Shown one piece after another: positions 6,852 through 25,518 of a stretch of DNA of 28,001 nt. The stretch is taken from contig JAJFLL010000230.1 in NCBI GenBank assembly GCA_021772695.1, forward strand, positions 1 to 28,001, written 5' to 3'. The position numbers were made by a program, and so were the translations under genes. This stretch comes from Deltaproteobacteria bacterium. Its GTDB lineage: Bacteria > UBA10199 > DSSB01. The stretch's first letter is position 1; every line of letters starts with the position of its first letter. The notes below the pieces were generated by a model that saw only the letters and a list, made by a program, of their open reading frames with translations, was not told where the DNA came from and ran no database searches.

Positions 6852-7505
6852 TTAAGAACCAAATTTTTTTAATTCGCCCCAGATTTTTTTGAAGAAGGAA
6901 TCACGGCCAGAATTCTGGTGGTACATCTTATACCTCAGGGGATTTTTTCGAAAATAGCTTTGGTGGTAGTCTTCGGCAGGGTAAAAATTCTTATAGGGTT
7001 GAATGGGGGTGAGGATAGCTTGTTGAAAACGTCCGCTTTTTTCCAGGGCTGCTTTGGATTTTTCAGCGACCGACCTTTGAGAGGCGTCATGGTAATAGAT
7101 GATGGCCTGGTATTGGGGACCACGATCCACGAATTGGCCCCCGGCATCGGTAGGATTGATTTGCCGCCAATAAACTTCAAGCAAGTCATCGAAGCTGATT
7201 CGTTTGTTATCAAAAACGATCCTCACCGTCTCCACATAACCTGAGTTTCCTGATGCCACTTCTTCGTATTTGGGATTGGGTTTATCTCCACCGGCGTATC
7301 CCGAAGTGACTGATACCACCCCTGGCAATTCCTTAAAGGCGGCTTCAATGCACCAAAAACACCCACCGGCGAGGGTGGCGGTATCTTGAGTCGATGGGGG
7401 CGCTACTGGTGCAGCTTCCCTATCATTTTGGCTCCATAAATAAGATGCGGTGCCAAGGGTTCCCACTAGAATTAATACGACGGTGAAATAGCGAAATATT
7501 TTCAT
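6852..7505 (-). CDS. msrA: Peptide-methionine (S)-S-oxide reductase MsrA with N-terminal export/anchor sequence
   Basis: AGGCFWC, SGYAGG, QFVDRGPQY, AEDYHQSY. Hydrophobic N-terminus MKIFRYFTVVLILVGTLGTASYLW; start taken as ATG 7505. Confidence 0.93.
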   Translation of the reverse strand: MKIFRYFTVVLILVGTLGTASYLWSQNDREAAPVAPPSTQDTATLAGGCFWCIEAAFKELPGVVSVTSGYAGGDKPNPKYEEVASGNSGYVETVRIVFDNKRISFDDLLEVYWRQINPTDAGGQFVDRGPQYQAIIYYHDASQRSVAEKSKAALEKSGRFQQAILTPIQPYKNFYPAEDYHQSYFRKNPLRYKMYHQNSGRDSFFKKIWGELKKFGS

Positions 7506-7524
7506 GAGACTCGTCCTCATAGCT

Positions 7525-7773
7525 TCATACGGCTGAGGAAGAATTTTGGATGACTTTAACCCACTTATGCTGACTTGTTTCGCCGCTGATCAATTGAATA
7601 GAGGTCCTTTTGACCTGAAAGTAGTCCGCAAGTAGAGCGATCAGGGCCTGGTTGGCTTTGCCATCAACGGGTGGTGCCGTAAGTTTCACCTTCAATTCAT
7701 TTTTTCCTAAGACCTGAACTTCATTTTTAGAAGCCCTGGGTATGACTTTGATACGATATTTCATAATAGTCAT
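7525..7773 (-). CDS. yggU: DUF167/YggU (UPF0235) family protein
   Basis: IKVIPRASK...LKVKLTAPPVDGKANQALIALLA...LISGETSQHK pattern. Confidence 0.9.
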   Translation of the reverse strand: MTIMKYRIKVIPRASKNEVQVLGKNELKVKLTAPPVDGKANQALIALLADYFQVKRTSIQLISGETSQHKWVKVIQNSSSAV

Positions 7774-7788
7774 GATCGTGGATGGTAT

Positions 7789-7838
7789 AAAAATTCCCCC
7801 ATTCTACCTGACTATAGAAAGAAAGGAAAATGGGGGAA
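7789..7838 (-). terminator. Probable terminator downstream of the csbD/DUF1328 genes
   Basis: Perfect 10-bp inverted repeat TTCCCCCATT (7794-7803) / AATGGGGGAA (7829-7838), followed by TTTTT on the minus strand. The loop is long (25 nt). Confidence 0.5.
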
Positions 7839-7875
7839 AAGGAAAATCTGAATCAAACTAGGGATATTGCCAATC

Positions 7876-8046
7876 CTAGGGAGACTTGCCTCTTATGGCA
7901 CGACTAATGGCAGCAATAATGATCAATACCAAAAAGACAAAGAACAAGATTTTGGCAATGGATGCAAAGCCTGCGGCAACTCCGGTGAAGCCTAGTACAC
8001 CGAACACAATGGCAAGCACGACAAAGGTTAAAACCCATCCAAGCAT
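7876..8046 (-). CDS. DUF1328 (UPF0391/YtjA-like) small membrane protein, 56 aa
   Basis: Below the ORF-track cutoff. MLGWVLTFVVLAIVFGVLGFTGVAAGFASIAKILFFVFLVLIIIAAISRAIRGKSP; AGGAGG RBS; characteristic LGFxG-A...IAKILF pattern. Confidence 0.92.
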   Translation of the reverse strand: MLGWVLTFVVLAIVFGVLGFTGVAAGFASIAKILFFVFLVLIIIAAISRAIRGKSP

Positions 8047-8105
8047 GTTACCTCCTAGGTTAGAAAGATAGTCTCAGATCCCTAGAGACTTAGGCAATTA
8101 AGCCC

Positions 8106-8309
8106 TTAACCTTTTAGGCCTTTGGTAAAATCGTCCAATTCCTTTTCGACCTGGTCTTTGGCTTTGCCGTATTTTGTTTGGAGCACCCCAGCCAATTCTT
8201 CACGGTGGCCTTTAACTCGATCCATGTCGTCATCGGTCAATTTGCCCCATTTCTGTTGGAATTTTCCTTTGAGTTGTTTCCATTCGCCTTCGATTTTGTC
8301 CCAGTTCAT
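8106..8309 (-). CDS. csbD: CsbD/YjbJ (UPF0337) general stress protein
   Basis: MNWDKIEGEWKQLKGKFQQKWGKLTDDD...G.LQ.KYG.AKD signature; AAGGAG RBS. Confidence 0.93.
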   Translation of the reverse strand: MNWDKIEGEWKQLKGKFQQKWGKLTDDDMDRVKGHREELAGVLQTKYGKAKDQVEKELDDFTKGLKG

Positions 8310-8562
8310 ATGCGTTCTCCTTTAAAAAGGGTTTTTGTTTTCGTCCTGTGTGGACCTTTTGGTATAGGTAGACAATATGATCAAATATGGTTTTTGTCTA
8401 TAATAAAAACAAAAAAATTTTTTACTGTCTATATTTATATGAGAACGATTAATATTTTGTCTAATATAAAATAAAATTTAATAGACGAAACAATCACTTA
8501 AGCTTACCGTACTTAGGTCCCGTAATAATTCAAAAGCCTTCTCAAGGAGTGAATTCCACCCC

Positions 8563-9360
8563 ATGCCTGAAAATAATCAACCCCAGCCAGCACCGCAGGG
8601 CGAAAAAAAAACTTCTTATTGGGTCCTCATCTTGGGGGTTCTGATTGGAGGTGCCTTAATTACCTATTTTGTCTCTAAGAGCATGACACCTGAAGAACTT
8701 CCTCAATTCAAAGAGACTCAAAAGGTTTACAGCGATGGCGAAGTAGTTTTCTACGAAGGTGTCTTGAAGTCTGTAGAAAAAATTGCAGAGGCCAAGGAAT
8801 ATTTGTTTCAGGGAAATAATCTCTATAAAAACCCAAATTACCAGCCTGCCGAATCGGGGTCAGGTGCTTCAGGGCTTCCACAAGCAGAAACCGCGCCTTC
8901 AGATAAAAATGGATATTTAAAAGCTTCTGAAAAATATGCCTTGGCTCTGGAATATTTTAAAACAGCCAGGCAACTGCTCGATCAGTCGATGGTTTCGGGA
9001 TTGGGTCCCATTCATGAATCTTGCAGTGGTCAAATTAAAATGGTGATAGATAATTATATAAGTTCTACATCTCTATTTTTCGACGATGCCAATAATATGT
9101 ATTCGGGTGAAAAGATTGAAGACGATAATCAGGTGATTACTCAAGCTCGAGCCAAATACCTTTCAGCTGAAGACAATATGAGAGACACCCTGAAGGGAAA
9201 TTGTGGTAACAATCTGTTCATTTTCTGGAATGAATCGGAAAATGGGCAGCAAGAGCGTGCTGCCGCGATCATTAAAAAAATGTATGGGCAGCAGCCTGAA
9301 GTTCTCAAGGAATTGCTTGGCCTGCTATCCCAGCCGAAACCCGAAGGTCCGCAAAAATAG
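8563..9360 (+). CDS. Hypothetical single-pass membrane protein with a helical soluble domain
   Basis: 265-aa ORF, AAGGAG upstream, one TM segment (YWVLILGVLIGGALITYFV); no family recognised. Confidence 0.7.
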   Translation: MPENNQPQPAPQGEKKTSYWVLILGVLIGGALITYFVSKSMTPEELPQFKETQKVYSDGEVVFYEGVLKSVEKIAEAKEYLFQGNNLYKNPNYQPAESGSGASGLPQAETAPSDKNGYLKASEKYALALEYFKTARQLLDQSMVSGLGPIHESCSGQIKMVIDNYISSTSLFFDDANNMYSGEKIEDDNQVITQARAKYLSAEDNMRDTLKGNCGNNLFIFWNESENGQQERAAAIIKKMYGQQPEVLKELLGLLSQPKPEGPQK

Positions 9361-9515
9361 GTGGAATGTCTGATAAAATCGTAAAAGTTTTAAATACAGT
9401 TTGTGTGATTAAAAATAAAACCCTGCAGAAATTATCAAAGTTGGGAGCGTCTCAGCCACTGGGCCCATGGATTTCAACAGCTGTAGAGATGGGGGTTTTC
9501 ATTAAAGAGTTGGGT

Positions 9516-9689
9516 CTATTGCGGCACACATACGCCTTGCTGGTAGGGTGGGCTTAGGCATTTACAACCAGCATAACAGTCTGCATTTGAGAAACAGGGA
9601 GTCCCCCCTTGGCAATAAACACAGAATCCCGATTGAATGGGCACCAACAAAACTCCAAAAAAAATCACGATAAGAATAAAAGCCTTCAT
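9516..9689 (-). CDS. Small secreted cysteine-rich peptide (knottin-like), 57 aa
   Basis: Not in ORF track. MKAFILIVIFFGVLLVPIQSGFC-VYCQGGTPCFSNADCYAGCKCLSPPYQQGVCVPQ: signal peptide-like N-terminus followed by six regularly spaced Cys. RBS is weak. Confidence 0.72.
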   Translation of the reverse strand: MKAFILIVIFFGVLLVPIQSGFCVYCQGGTPCFSNADCYAGCKCLSPPYQQGVCVPQ

Positions 9690-9919
9690 TTTCTTAACCC
9701 TATAATCTTCATTCTCTAGGAAAAGGCACCTGGGGTCAAGGTACCCGTTAACTGAAAACCGCTTCGGTATATTTACCAGGATAATATTTTACAATTCTTT
9801 CGGGAGTATGCTAGCTGCAGCTCGGCGGAAAATTTCTAAGGTGCGTTGAAAGACGATTGAATTGGGTCCTCTGGGGGTAAAGGAAACCATCATTTTAAAA
9901 GAGATAGACGGAGATTCAT

Positions 9920-10429
9920 ATGAATTTATTCACTAAACTATTAAAAATCAGCCTCCCCGCACTTTTATTAGTATTGGGCTGTGTGACATCTGCCCAAGCC
10001 TCGACCCAAAGTCGACAGTTTCAATTGAATGGTGGCGTTGGTGTCTTTGTCGGTACAGAAGGTTTAGGTGCCGCCTTTGATTTTTCTCTGGAACCGGAAT
10101 TCTTTTTTACCGAGCACAATACCTTATCAGTTCGCATGGATTTTACCGCCGGTAACACCGACTCTTTTCATATCGGTGCACGCTGGCGCTACTACTTCGA
10201 TCTTCCCAGTGAAAAGATCAATCTCTTCGTAGGTGTCGGAATTGGTGGCGTCGTCAATTTTAACGGTGGAAATTTCGGTGATGCCGCCTTGCCTGTCTTT
10301 GGTTGGCAGTACGATCTCGGCCAACACCTAAAGATTGGGTCGGATATTTCTTTCGATATTATCTTCAACGGCAATAATGTGGCCTTCGCCGCGCGTCTGA
10401 TGCCCGTAGTCTTAAAGTGGGCGTTTTAG
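9920..10429 (+). CDS. Small outer-membrane beta-barrel protein
   Basis: Signal peptide (...SAQA), alternating Gly/aromatic beta-strands, C-terminal aromatic ...LKWAF; GGAG RBS. Confidence 0.75.
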   Translation: MNLFTKLLKISLPALLLVLGCVTSAQASTQSRQFQLNGGVGVFVGTEGLGAAFDFSLEPEFFFTEHNTLSVRMDFTAGNTDSFHIGARWRYYFDLPSEKINLFVGVGIGGVVNFNGGNFGDAALPVFGWQYDLGQHLKIGSDISFDIIFNGNNVAFAARLMPVVLKWAF

Positions 10430-10554
10430 TCTAAAAGACTAAATGTTTCAGTCGTTTATCTGTATTTAACTTTTCTTTTATCTGGGCGGTCCCAATCCTA
10501 AGGAAGAAAACCGCCCATATAGGCTGGGGTTTGGACCCCGTCAGGAGAGAAGTT

Positions 10555-10953
10555 ATGAAGTCCTTAAAAACCAAAATACTGATGTCGCTTTTTACTTTAG
10601 GTATAGCGTTTAGCTTTGCCTGGGGTGGAGGACTGGCTTACGCGGATCCGCCCCAATGGGCACCGGCCCATGGCTACCACGGCAAGAAATATAAAAAGTA
10701 TAAAAAGCACAAACACAAACATCATAAACATAAAAAATATTCTTATGTTTATTACCCCAATAACCAGGTCTACTACAGCCCGGTACGCCGCGGGTATTAT
10801 TATCCCTATCGGGGGAATTGGGTCTTTAATGTAAATCTTCCCAATTCCATCCGCCTAGGTCGAGCCGTGTCAATTGAACTGGGTGGTCCGACCCCTTATG
10901 CCTACCATCCCACGGTGATTAACCAATATCCCGTAGTGGTTGTTAACGATTAA
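10555..10953 (+). CDS. Secreted protein with PPxWAPAHGY motif and Lys/His/Tyr-rich tract
   Basis: AGGAG RBS then ATG 10555; signal peptide ending AYA; PPQWAPAHGYHGKKYKKYKKHKHKHHKHKKY. Confidence 0.75.
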   Translation: MKSLKTKILMSLFTLGIAFSFAWGGGLAYADPPQWAPAHGYHGKKYKKYKKHKHKHHKHKKYSYVYYPNNQVYYSPVRRGYYYPYRGNWVFNVNLPNSIRLGRAVSIELGGPTPYAYHPTVINQYPVVVVND

Positions 10954-22815: not shown

Positions 22816-25518
22816 TCAGCGGGGGTTTTTATAGCGTAGGTTCCAGGTCCACTTGTGGAGTTCCATGACCAGCAAGACCGTAAGGGCTAGTGCGAATAAC
22901 AGTGCTCCCGTTTCGAGGTTCACCGCCTGCGTCGAGAGCAGTTTTTGGCCGAAGGGAAGATACATAAAGGCCAGGTGCACCGAAAACGCGAGCAAAGCAC
23001 CAACGACGAGAAAGGGGCTTCTCAAAGGAGAGAGGGTGAAGGCCGAGCGGGTTTCGGAACGGCAATTGCCCAAATGCACGTTTTCAAAGAGGACCATGAG
23101 CAAGAGTATTCCGTTGCGTGCGGTCTCTTCGGGCCAACCGGCCTCTAGCATCCAATAAAAAGTAGCGATGCTCACCCCGCCCATGACCACAGCTCCCACC
23201 AAAACCCGTTCCACCATCAAACGATTGAAGATCCTTTCCTTGGGAGGGCGGGGAGGTTGTTCCAATTCGTTGCCCAGTCCGGGCTCGAAGGCCAGGGCCA
23301 CGTCTTGAATGCCGTTAGTCACCAGATTCAACCAAAGCAATTGCACGGGAAGCAGGGGAAGGGGCAGGCCCATGGCGATGGATAAGGCCACCATGATGAC
23401 CTCGGCGGCGCCCGTAGAGATGAGCAGGTAAATAACGTTTCTAACGTTGTTGTAAGCGATGCGGCCTTCTTCCACTCCCGAGACGATGGTGGAAAAGTTA
23501 TCGTCGCTGATCACAATGTCGGATGCGTCACGCGCCACATCGGTCCCCGCCTTGCCCATGGCGACTCCGATGTTGGCGGTGCGCAGTGCGGGGGCGTCAT
23601 TGACGCCGTCCCCGGTCATGGCCACGAAATGCTTGTTGTGTTTGCAGGCGTCGACGATGCGGAGTTTTTCGCGGGGGGCCACCCGGGAATAGACTTTGAT
23701 ATGATGCGCTAATTCCCGCAATGCTTCGTCGTCTACCTGCTGCAATTGGGGACCGGTGAGGACTTGATCCAATGAATCGGCCAGCCCCAACTGGCGGGCG
23801 ATGGCCAAGGCGGTCAGCGGATGGTCCCCGGTGATCATGGCAACCTGGATTCCGGCCCGGTGGCAGGCGTCGATGGCCTCGGGTACTCCGGACCGCAGAG
23901 GATCGATCATGCCGACCAGGCCTAAAAACTTTAATCGTGAGGGAGCGATGGGTACCGTGTCGGGATCGATTGGCTCGTGATTCCGCTTTTCCGCCAAGGC
24001 AATGACGCGATAACCCCGTTCGGCGAGATTTTGCGCCTGTTGCAGGGCCGAATTTTGGGATTCCTCCGAATCGGTAAAATCGCACATGGACAATACTTTT
24101 TCCGGCGCTCCCTTGACCACGCTTAGGTATTCGGCTCCCACCCGGTGAAAGGAGGCGGAAAATTGATTTTCCGGTTCAAAGGGGATGCTATTCACTTGTG
24201 GGAATTGATTCCAGGATGGATCCCGGGTGACCCCGCCCTTTCGGGCCATGGTCAATAGGGCGATGTCGGTAGGATCACCCCGAAAGACCCATTGGTCGTC
24301 CCGCCGGCGGAGGTCCCCTTCGTTACACAATACGGCGGTTTGTAACAAAGGTGAGAGGGAAGGGAACTGATCGGACTTAACCTCCGATTCTTCGTATTGG
24401 ATTTTGCCGTTGGGTTCAAAGCCTTGTCCTGAAACCTTGAGACATGTGCCGCCGGATAAATAAATTTCCTGAACCGTAAGTTCATTGCAAGTCAGGGTAC
24501 CGGTCTTATCGCTTCCGATGAAAGTGCAACTGCCCAAGCCTTCTACCGCGGCGAGCTTTCTGACGATGACGCCCTTAGCGGCCATACGATTGGTGGCGAT
24601 GGCCAGGGCCACGGTCACCGCCACGGGCAGGCCTTCAGGAATGGCAGAGACCGCCAGGGCAACCGCGAAAAAGAACATCTCCTTTAACCCGTAGGCCTTG
24701 AGAAATCCTATTCCCGCCACGGCAAAGGCGGCCACCAATACGGCGAAGCCCACGATTTTGGTAAAACGTTCCAGGCGTTGCAACAGGGGTGCCTTGCCCG
24801 CCTTCGTGCCGATGACATCCATGGCCAATTGACCAATCAGCGTTTGGGTACCGGTGGTCACGACGATCCCTTCGCCGCGACCCCGCACCACGGTGGTTCC
24901 CGCAAAGACCATATTGTGCCGGTCACCTACGGGAACCATTTCAGTGCTCAGCCAATGAGGATTTTTTAATACAGACAAGGATTCTCCAGTCAGGGGAGAT
25001 TCATCGATCTCTAACCCCTTGGCCTTTAGTAAGCGAATATCTGCTGGGATCCGGTCGCCCGGTTCCAACCAGACGCGATCTCCCGGCACCACGTGTTCGG
25101 CGGAAATCTGCCGGGGTTCTTGATCCCGGCTCACCAAGGCTTCAATCTGCAAGAGTTTCTCCAAGGCCCGGCTGCTGCGATCGGCCCGCCATTCTTCGTA
25201 CCCTCCAATGATCGCGTTGATGAGCAGCACGGCCGCGATAAAGGCGGCATCGATATGTTCACCGATGAATAGCGAGACCAAGGCGGCGACCCCTAAAATA
25301 TAAATGAGGGGGCTTTGAAATTGTCTAAAGAAAATTAGAAATAGGTTGGGTGGTGCTTCACGGGGCAAGATATTGGGCCCGAATTGTTCCAGTCGGGATT
25401 GCGCCTCGGCTTCACTTAATCCGGTATCTTGGGTGTTTAGTTTGTTTAATAGTTCGGCGGGCTGAAGGCTGAACCATTGGGGACTCGGAATGCGGCCGCG
25501 GCCTGGAGCGGTTGCCAT
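22816..25518 (-). CDS. Type II cation-transporting P-type ATPase
   Basis: LTGES, IPEGLP, DKTGTLT, GDPTD, KGAPE, DPLR, MITGD, GDGVNDAP; about 10 TM segments. Confidence 0.95.
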   Translation of the reverse strand: MATAPGRGRIPSPQWFSLQPAELLNKLNTQDTGLSEAEAQSRLEQFGPNILPREAPPNLFLIFFRQFQSPLIYILGVAALVSLFIGEHIDAAFIAAVLLINAIIGGYEEWRADRSSRALEKLLQIEALVSRDQEPRQISAEHVVPGDRVWLEPGDRIPADIRLLKAKGLEIDESPLTGESLSVLKNPHWLSTEMVPVGDRHNMVFAGTTVVRGRGEGIVVTTGTQTLIGQLAMDVIGTKAGKAPLLQRLERFTKIVGFAVLVAAFAVAGIGFLKAYGLKEMFFFAVALAVSAIPEGLPVAVTVALAIATNRMAAKGVIVRKLAAVEGLGSCTFIGSDKTGTLTCNELTVQEIYLSGGTCLKVSGQGFEPNGKIQYEESEVKSDQFPSLSPLLQTAVLCNEGDLRRRDDQWVFRGDPTDIALLTMARKGGVTRDPSWNQFPQVNSIPFEPENQFSASFHRVGAEYLSVVKGAPEKVLSMCDFTDSEESQNSALQQAQNLAERGYRVIALAEKRNHEPIDPDTVPIAPSRLKFLGLVGMIDPLRSGVPEAIDACHRAGIQVAMITGDHPLTALAIARQLGLADSLDQVLTGPQLQQVDDEALRELAHHIKVYSRVAPREKLRIVDACKHNKHFVAMTGDGVNDAPALRTANIGVAMGKAGTDVARDASDIVISDDNFSTIVSGVEEGRIAYNNVRNVIYLLISTGAAEVIMVALSIAMGLPLPLLPVQLLWLNLVTNGIQDVALAFEPGLGNELEQPPRPPKERIFNRLMVERVLVGAVVMGGVSIATFYWMLEAGWPEETARNGILLLMVLFENVHLGNCRSETRSAFTLSPLRSPFLVVGALLAFSVHLAFMYLPFGQKLLSTQAVNLETGALLFALALTVLLVMELHKWTWNLRYKNPR

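Follow-up and report, generated by a model that had tools for sequence, protein, structure and literature searches.

Do bacteria make knottins? These peptides are valued as ultra-stable scaffolds for drugs and binders, and the literature credits them to plants, animals, fungi and some viruses. The question is raised by a 28,001-nucleotide stretch of DNA (contig JAJFLL010000230.1, hereafter the window) from an uncultured biofilm bacterium of the candidate phylum UBA10199. On its minus strand, an open reading frame (ORF) at 9516-9689 encodes a 57-residue pre-peptide, P0001 (MKAFILIVIFFGVLLVPIQSGFCVYCQGGTPCFSNADCYAGCKCLSPPYQQGVCVPQ), which a preliminary description of the window had taken for an unannotated secreted peptide resembling the squash inhibitors. 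That interpretation is partly supported by our results. The peptide gene is a real, conserved gene, and on balance we favor, as the best explanation of the whole, a knottin-like binder or inhibitor with three disulfides that is exported by the Sec pathway.

The complete coding sequence (57 codons and a TAG stop) begins at the first in-frame ATG downstream of a stop, and its translation is identical to the one given earlier. A six-frame search of 60 relatives returned seven more full-length, stop-free copies, 50-63% identical, in six genomes of the same family; the Cys-conserving homologues that the preliminary description had proposed to seek in related genomes do exist. When a profile was run against 93 genomes of the phylum, the gene was present in 7 of the 14 genomes of one UBA10199 family, where its products are 57-61 residues long, and was not found in the other 79. 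A search of 5.8 billion protein clusters turned up no more than 13 matches, all of them small proteins (57-73 residues), and because a deeper profile recovered the same 13 clusters, the profile searches saturate. One homologue is on record, under the name ‘Deltaproteobacteria bacterium PRO3’, as a hypothetical protein. A single-sequence word-index search with P0001 gave zero matches, and the exact protein is absent from a collection of 15 billion proteins, which fits its description as unannotated. Contamination of the contig and a eukaryotic origin are both ruled out by the bacterial flanking genes and by conservation of the peptide gene in seven bacterial genomes.

The homologues have evolved under purifying selection, in line with the dN/dS ratio below 1 that had been put forward as a check. 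Within the 35-codon Cys-rich block, non-synonymous change (pN 0.06-0.36) lies far below synonymous change (pS from 0.25 to saturation), and one pair of homologues (L008 and L010) has zero non-synonymous changes at a pS of 0.25. Seven Cys are invariant (C23, C26, C32, C38, C42, C44 and C54), with their codons toggling between TGT and TGC across homologues. From residue 26 to residue 54 the spacing is C-x5-C-x5-C-x3-C-x1-C-x9-C, just as had been described, and lies far outside what chance would produce; it is invariant in 16 sequences and has the six Cys and short loop 4 of the inhibitor cystine knot (ICK) class. The idea of a six-Cys peptide stands insofar as the six ‘knot’ Cys are invariant, but the family has C23 in addition, which is as conserved as the other six in all 16-17 distinct sequences. 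Mean column identity is 75% in the mature part and much lower in the leader, and the loops xGG[TG]P, [FY]S[ND]x[DE] and QAPP[YF]xQGV are conserved to the same degree as the cysteines. The predicted mature P0001 peptide has a net charge of 0, and the homologues range from 0 to -3.

What fold might such a pattern adopt? An AlphaFold2 (AF2) model of residues 22-57, built on a 16-sequence alignment, has a mean pLDDT of 76.5 (62 over the first ten residues, about 82 over the remainder), with a short helix spanning N35-D37 and two strands, C42-L45 and G52-P56; a full-length model adds an N-terminal helix at 2-15. The model superimposes on the squash inhibitor EETI-II with a root-mean-square deviation (rmsd) of 2.2 Å over 30 of 31 residues, and a structure-based alignment to MCh-1, an ICK peptide from seeds of Momordica charantia (PDB 2M2Q), gives 43% identity over 30 residues. 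This value, like the 30% identity of the EETI-II alignment, is the one obtained with all six Cys aligned, which would place C26 to C54 like knottin Cys I-VI; the predicted pairing is drawn only from the identity counts of these two structure-based alignments. A structure search independent of Foldseek (VIA) ranked true knottins first, with alignments that span the whole peptide V24-Q57 and leave out C23. Foldseek against the PDB returned at the top Dickkopf CRD2, of which that of Dkk1 was the best match, and the ICK toxins lambda-MeuKTx-1, psalmotoxin, Magi4 and robustoxin (TM 0.5-0.64, all with E of at least 0.35). Against Swiss-Prot models, the top 30 matches consisted of ICK toxins, Dickkopf/prokineticin and two fungal UPF0499 proteins (TM mostly 0.57-0.73, E at least 0.14), with no Arabidopsis DEFL among them. 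The predicted fold appears knottin-like.

MCh-1 and the P0001 peptide have the same framework from Cys III on (C-x3-C-x1-C-x9-C) and both carry AGC-x-CL ... GVCV, with 10/18 ungapped identities by BLASTP. Both are single-domain peptides of about 32-34 residues without a basic P1 residue. MCh-1 has no trypsin-inhibitory activity, and its disulfide map of I-IV/II-V/III-VI is chemically proven (PMC3792974). In contrast to this experimental map, that of P0001 is a prediction. MCh-1 is, moreover, a plant seed peptide whose loops 1 and 2 hold 4 and 7 residues, as opposed to 5 and 5, and its sequence similarity to P0001 is not significant after correction for the database search. Homology between the two is unproven, and convergence has at least the same likelihood.

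The squash inhibitors (EETI-II, MCoTI; PF00299) have a near-equal spacing of C-x6-C-x5-C-x3-C-x1-C-x5-C, and in common with P0001 they possess the [ST]-x-x-D-C-x-A-G-C-x-C core and a 3-10 turn before Cys III. P0001 differs from them in its bacterial host, its bacterial signal-peptide leader and its last loop, which has nine residues instead of five. It also lacks their reactive-site loop, in which a P1 Arg, Lys or Leu stands between Cys I and II: loop 1 reads [QASP]-G-G-[TG]-P in 16/16 sequences, and canonical trypsin or chymotrypsin inhibition is therefore not expected. The preliminary description had reached the same view of trypsin from the lack of Arg/Lys in loop 1. The window peptide has no match to the Squash family at E<=10 and so falls short of its gathering score of 22 bits, below which the best family member, P0008, also remains (15.3 bits, E 0.021). 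The likeness to squash inhibitors claimed at the outset is real in pattern and predicted shape, while homology is not demonstrable.

The match to PF25052 (AtDEF-like, a family of plant defensin-like proteins) is borderline: with a gathering cut-off of 25 bits, the complete pre-peptide reaches 25.3 bits and all 8 members match at E<=1, but the Cys-rich part alone scores 13-15 bits (E 0.03-0.1), with about 10 bits contributed by the signal peptide. Sequence searches of the PDB yielded nothing significant (EETI-derived peptides at E 0.3-0.8), and we regard a match there to the alphavirus E2 N-terminus (‘fCpYC..tPCfs’, E 0.1) as chance. A CSαβ defensin is rejected because CxxxC and CxC share one Cys here and the defensin motif needs them separate. 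A fungal CBM1-like cellulose-binding peptide, an idea suggested by the pattern YxxCGG...PYYxQC, found neither a Pfam CBM_1 match nor a CBM1 among the fold matches, and a metallothionein found no family match in Pfam or NCBIfam.

Secretion was assessed by rule. Residues 1-23 (9621-9689, minus strand) form a predicted Sec signal peptide in which an n-region of MK is followed by 14 hydrophobic residues, in agreement with the hydrophobic leader noted earlier, and by a c-region, PIQSGFC, that ends at the invariant C23 (position -1). The leader of most homologues comprises one or two basic residues, 13-15 hydrophobic residues and then a Pro; a core of this length looks signal-peptide-like and would be short for a membrane anchor. 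We scored four candidate cleavage positions by the (-3,-1) rule in 16 homologues. The rule is satisfied at C23|V24 in 16/16 (-3 = V/G/S, -1 = C) and at the other positions in 0-3/16, and by this measure the leaders have the n-h-c layout and the small residues at -3 and -1 of a substrate of Sec and signal peptidase I (SPase I). Since C23|V24 alone obeys the rule throughout, the site proposed in the preliminary description (G-F-C|V) is the best available reading.

We hypothesize that the pre-peptide is exported through the Sec pathway, to the periplasm or the medium, and that SPase I most likely cuts after C23, which would leave a 34-residue, uncharged peptide, V24-Q57 (9519-9620, minus strand), with a knottin-like core of six invariant Cys. 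A VKOR-DsbA system of the envelope would then oxidise this product into a mini-protein with three disulfides, predicted to have the ICK topology C26-C42, C32-C44 and C38-C54 and to fold with N35-D37 as a 3-10 turn and C42-L45/G52-P56 as a C-terminal beta-hairpin. VKOR-DsbA fusions are the usual DsbB substitute in many bacteria. The host genome encodes two VKOR-DsbA-like thioredoxin fusion proteins of 387 and 395 residues (G000 C68:1978-3141 (+) and C180:2191-3378 (-); L022 and L023), and DsbB has zero matches in this metagenome-assembled genome, which is 83% complete.

Once folded, the peptide may act outside the cytoplasm by binding one conserved target with a rigid scaffold that resists proteases; most plausibly this target would be a hydrolase or protease that it inhibits, or a ligand in the envelope or matrix. 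Since the loops are no less conserved than the Cys and the peptide lacks charge, we consider a stable binder or inhibitor of a conserved target more likely than two other roles: that of a cationic antimicrobial that disrupts membranes, which the net charge of all homologues disfavors, and that of a toxin evolving fast in an arms race. The animal ICK toxins (lambda-MeuKTx-1, delta-hexatoxins, psalmotoxin, Magi4) and the Dickkopf/colipase domains come closest to P0001 in shape (TM by query 0.6-0.73, rmsd 1.4-3 Å) and have no sequence relationship to it. The toxins are basic with hypervariable loops, whereas the P0001 family is neutral or acidic with conserved loops; the Dickkopf and colipase domains are unknotted and contain five disulfides. 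A stricter version of our hypothesis, in which the peptide is a truly knotted bacterial knottin that is freely secreted, acts on a conserved target of the host itself or of its environment and has a common ancestry with the Cys-rich inserts of surface proteins (see below), is possible, but we put it forward tentatively.

One observation weighs against cleavage after C23 followed by folding as a six-Cys knottin: it leaves an invariant Cys at -1 unexplained, and Cys is uncommon at this position of SPase I sites. This keeps alive the rival in which all seven Cys belong to the product. The leader would be cut 1-3 residues earlier or remain uncut, and C23 would either form an intermolecular disulfide, with a second copy or with a partner, or contribute to a CxxC redox or metal site (C23-V-Y-C26); in both cases the product would not be a classical six-Cys knottin. 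The codon for C23 toggles between TGT and TGC while positions 19-22 are free to vary, AF2 confidence is lowest for exactly the C23 segment, and msrA lies about 2 kb from the peptide gene in two distant loci, in one of which a DsbA-like gene stands alongside. However, the (-3,-1) rule holds for alternative cleavage sites in so few of the homologues, and the hydrophobic core is so short for a permanent anchor, that both versions of the leader meet difficulties, and the alignments to six-Cys knottins span V24-Q57 with no need of C23. We consider the seven-Cys form doubtful, though a serious contender.

A further alternative concerns what the peptide is derived from. The preliminary description had suggested a relation to CxSxxDC Cys-rich repeats of larger bacterial proteins, and this suggestion gained support from three sources. 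First, P0003 (966 residues; L038 3001-5901) was the sole non-family match among 1.8 billion representative proteins (E 6e-7). It has four cohesin-type repeats, each with an insert C-R-x-G-G-S-P-C-x-T-D-x-D-C-x-G-x-C-K that matches the N-terminal half of the peptide in its C-x5-C-x5-C-x3-C spacing and its GG[ST]PC motif (QGG[ST]PC). Second, the host's own genome encodes three small proteins of lipoprotein-like character (G000 C54:457-678 (+), C166:4557-4886 (-) and C331:1718-1978 (+); L024-L026) that contain 9-13 Cys in repeats of the CxxDxDC type and show local similarity to the peptide; two of the three match Pfam DUF7107, and one of these two passes the cut-off and also matches EB and, weakly, Squash. 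Third, the shape neighbors in the ESM Atlas are multi-domain proteins of Myxococcota and Bdellovibrionota, plus Dickkopf. Taken together, these suggest that the peptide derives from a bacterial disulfide module and exists as a stand-alone version of it, and P0001 and the bacterial inserts and repeats do have C-x-x-G-G-[ST]-P-C-x-[ST]-[DN]-x-D-C-x-x-G-C in common, in a similar kind of organisms.

Carried to its end, this relation would make the peptide itself a C-x-[ST]-x-x-D-C-x-x-G-x-C module of the EB/DUF7107/Dickkopf-like kind found in Myxococcota-like surface proteins, with laddered, non-knotted disulfides and a structural or adhesive role, and the rank of Dkk1 CRD2 in Foldseek is consistent with that. 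However, the uncharacterised bacterial modules sit within proteins of 73-966 residues and lack both the CxC and the final nine-residue loop with its Cys. The CxC and the long last loop of the peptide fit the squash and MCh-1 knottins, not the four-Cys EB repeat, the VIA search put true knottins first with the whole peptide covered, and the peptide is single-domain, without an anchor. We judge a laddered module of this kind improbable. The P0003 gene itself adjoins genes for an SRCR-domain protein and a Ser/Thr kinase.

Very little speaks for a lipoprotein with a non-canonical lipobox, in which C23 would be the lipidated +1 residue and the Cys-rich domain would be tethered to the membrane. A signal-like hydrophobic segment with an invariant Cys immediately behind it is what such a protein would have, but the lipobox [LVI][ASTVI][GAS]-C is missing, with F/L at -1 in 16/16 sequences and P/S/R/Q at -3. 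Lipoprotein-like N-termini of the host genome have A/G/S at -1 (49/67), and those with F/L resemble transmembrane helices. On the strength of the -1 residue in all 16 we reject this reading as very unlikely. The chance that this short Cys-rich ORF with a CxxC encodes a SCIFF/ranthipeptide-like precursor of a ribosomally synthesized and post-translationally modified peptide, or a cytoplasmic metal-binding peptide, is negligible, as about 12 loci hold no adjacent radical-SAM maturase, cyclase, protease or transporter gene, no NCBIfam or Pfam model for SCIFF or metallothionein families matches, and the N-terminus is a classical hydrophobic signal and not the leader of such a precursor.

The Sec-exported, knottin-like peptide that we favor would represent a new sequence family; its fold class is known, its host unusual. 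In a search of about 8.4 million papers and preprints, bacterial or prokaryotic knottins and bacterial cystine knots were not mentioned under such phrases, and the peptide class is barely documented in bacteria. The ESM Atlas does contain bacterial clusters of the same shape, so knottin-like modules appear to be recurrent in uncultured bacteria, and P0001 would be one more family and not a unique oddity. A conserved, stand-alone, Sec-exported bacterial family would widen the taxonomic range of the knottin scaffold, and would also offer a natural bacterial route of production through its own signal peptide and VKOR-DsbA oxidation. If the stricter version, a truly knotted bacterial knottin, is true, the scaffold is not a eukaryotic invention and a plain Sec and VKOR-DsbA pathway suffices to make it. 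The main value of the locus lies in providing an experimentally easy test case.

The peptide gene stands alone and is monocistronic. On one side is a convergent gene of unknown function (265 residues, 8563-9360, plus strand), and on the other a divergent gene for an outer-membrane beta-barrel protein (9920-10429, plus strand; Pfam OMP_b-brl). Read from the sequence, a weak Shine-Dalgarno-like AGGG (9698-9701, minus strand) lies 8 nt 5' of the ATG; homologues have stronger Shine-Dalgarno sequences of the GGGGG/GGAGG type at the matching position. Further upstream, TTGACC-17-GAGAAT (9711-9739, minus strand) matches the sigma-70 promoter consensus, but one such match, against 1.3 expected in shuffles, is not evidence of promoter function. 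Neither a terminator search nor folding of the 3' region (z-score 0.66) found a terminator 3' of the gene, and an Rfam scan of the whole window gave zero RNA families. The locus is present only in DNA runs of a biofilm metagenome, there being no RNA run among those listed.

Gene neighborhoods vary, and no universally conserved neighbor was found among about 12 loci compared. The peptide gene is flanked by genes for an Lhr helicase and a DAGAT acyltransferase in genus g7, by KefB, Mut7-C and a 75-residue ORF in a g3-like clade, and by a sulfate permease in g4; at another locus an ammonium transporter lies alongside. One contig of a relative (G012 C9) carries two paralogous peptide genes 10 kb apart, at 23917-24093 and 34065-34241 (L021/L015 and L016/L013); one adjoins an Lhr helicase gene, and near the other are genes for a YacP-like NYN-domain protein, an ammonium transporter and a HipA kinase. 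The only recurring neighbor is msrA, which occupies the strand of the peptide gene and lies about 2 kb downstream of it, both in the window and at the locus of one distant homologue; the arrangement may be a remnant of ancestral gene order or point to a weak tie with thiol or oxidative-stress functions. In the window this gene (PMSR; 6852-7520, minus strand) encodes an N-terminal hydrophobic anchor, and the MsrA of its counterpart (L033 6841-7557, plus strand) is 45% identical. Between the peptide gene and msrA, L033 has DsbA-like, SRPBCC and DoxX genes, of which the DsbA-like gene abuts the peptide gene.

Beside msrA in the window, the minus strand at 7525-8309 encodes a DUF167/YggU protein (7525-7773), a DUF1328 membrane protein (7876-8046) and a CsbD-like protein (8106-8309), and the CsbD family suggests a small stress-response cluster. 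On the plus strand at 10531-10953 is a gene for a 140-residue protein of no Pfam family, with a signal-like N-terminus, a Lys/His/Tyr-rich tract (KKYKKYKKHKHKHHKHKKY) and then a Tyr/Pro-rich region. At L033, a reverse-transcriptase gene (RVT_1; 8558-9976) lies a few kb from the homologue P0010 and could be part of a retron or group II intron.
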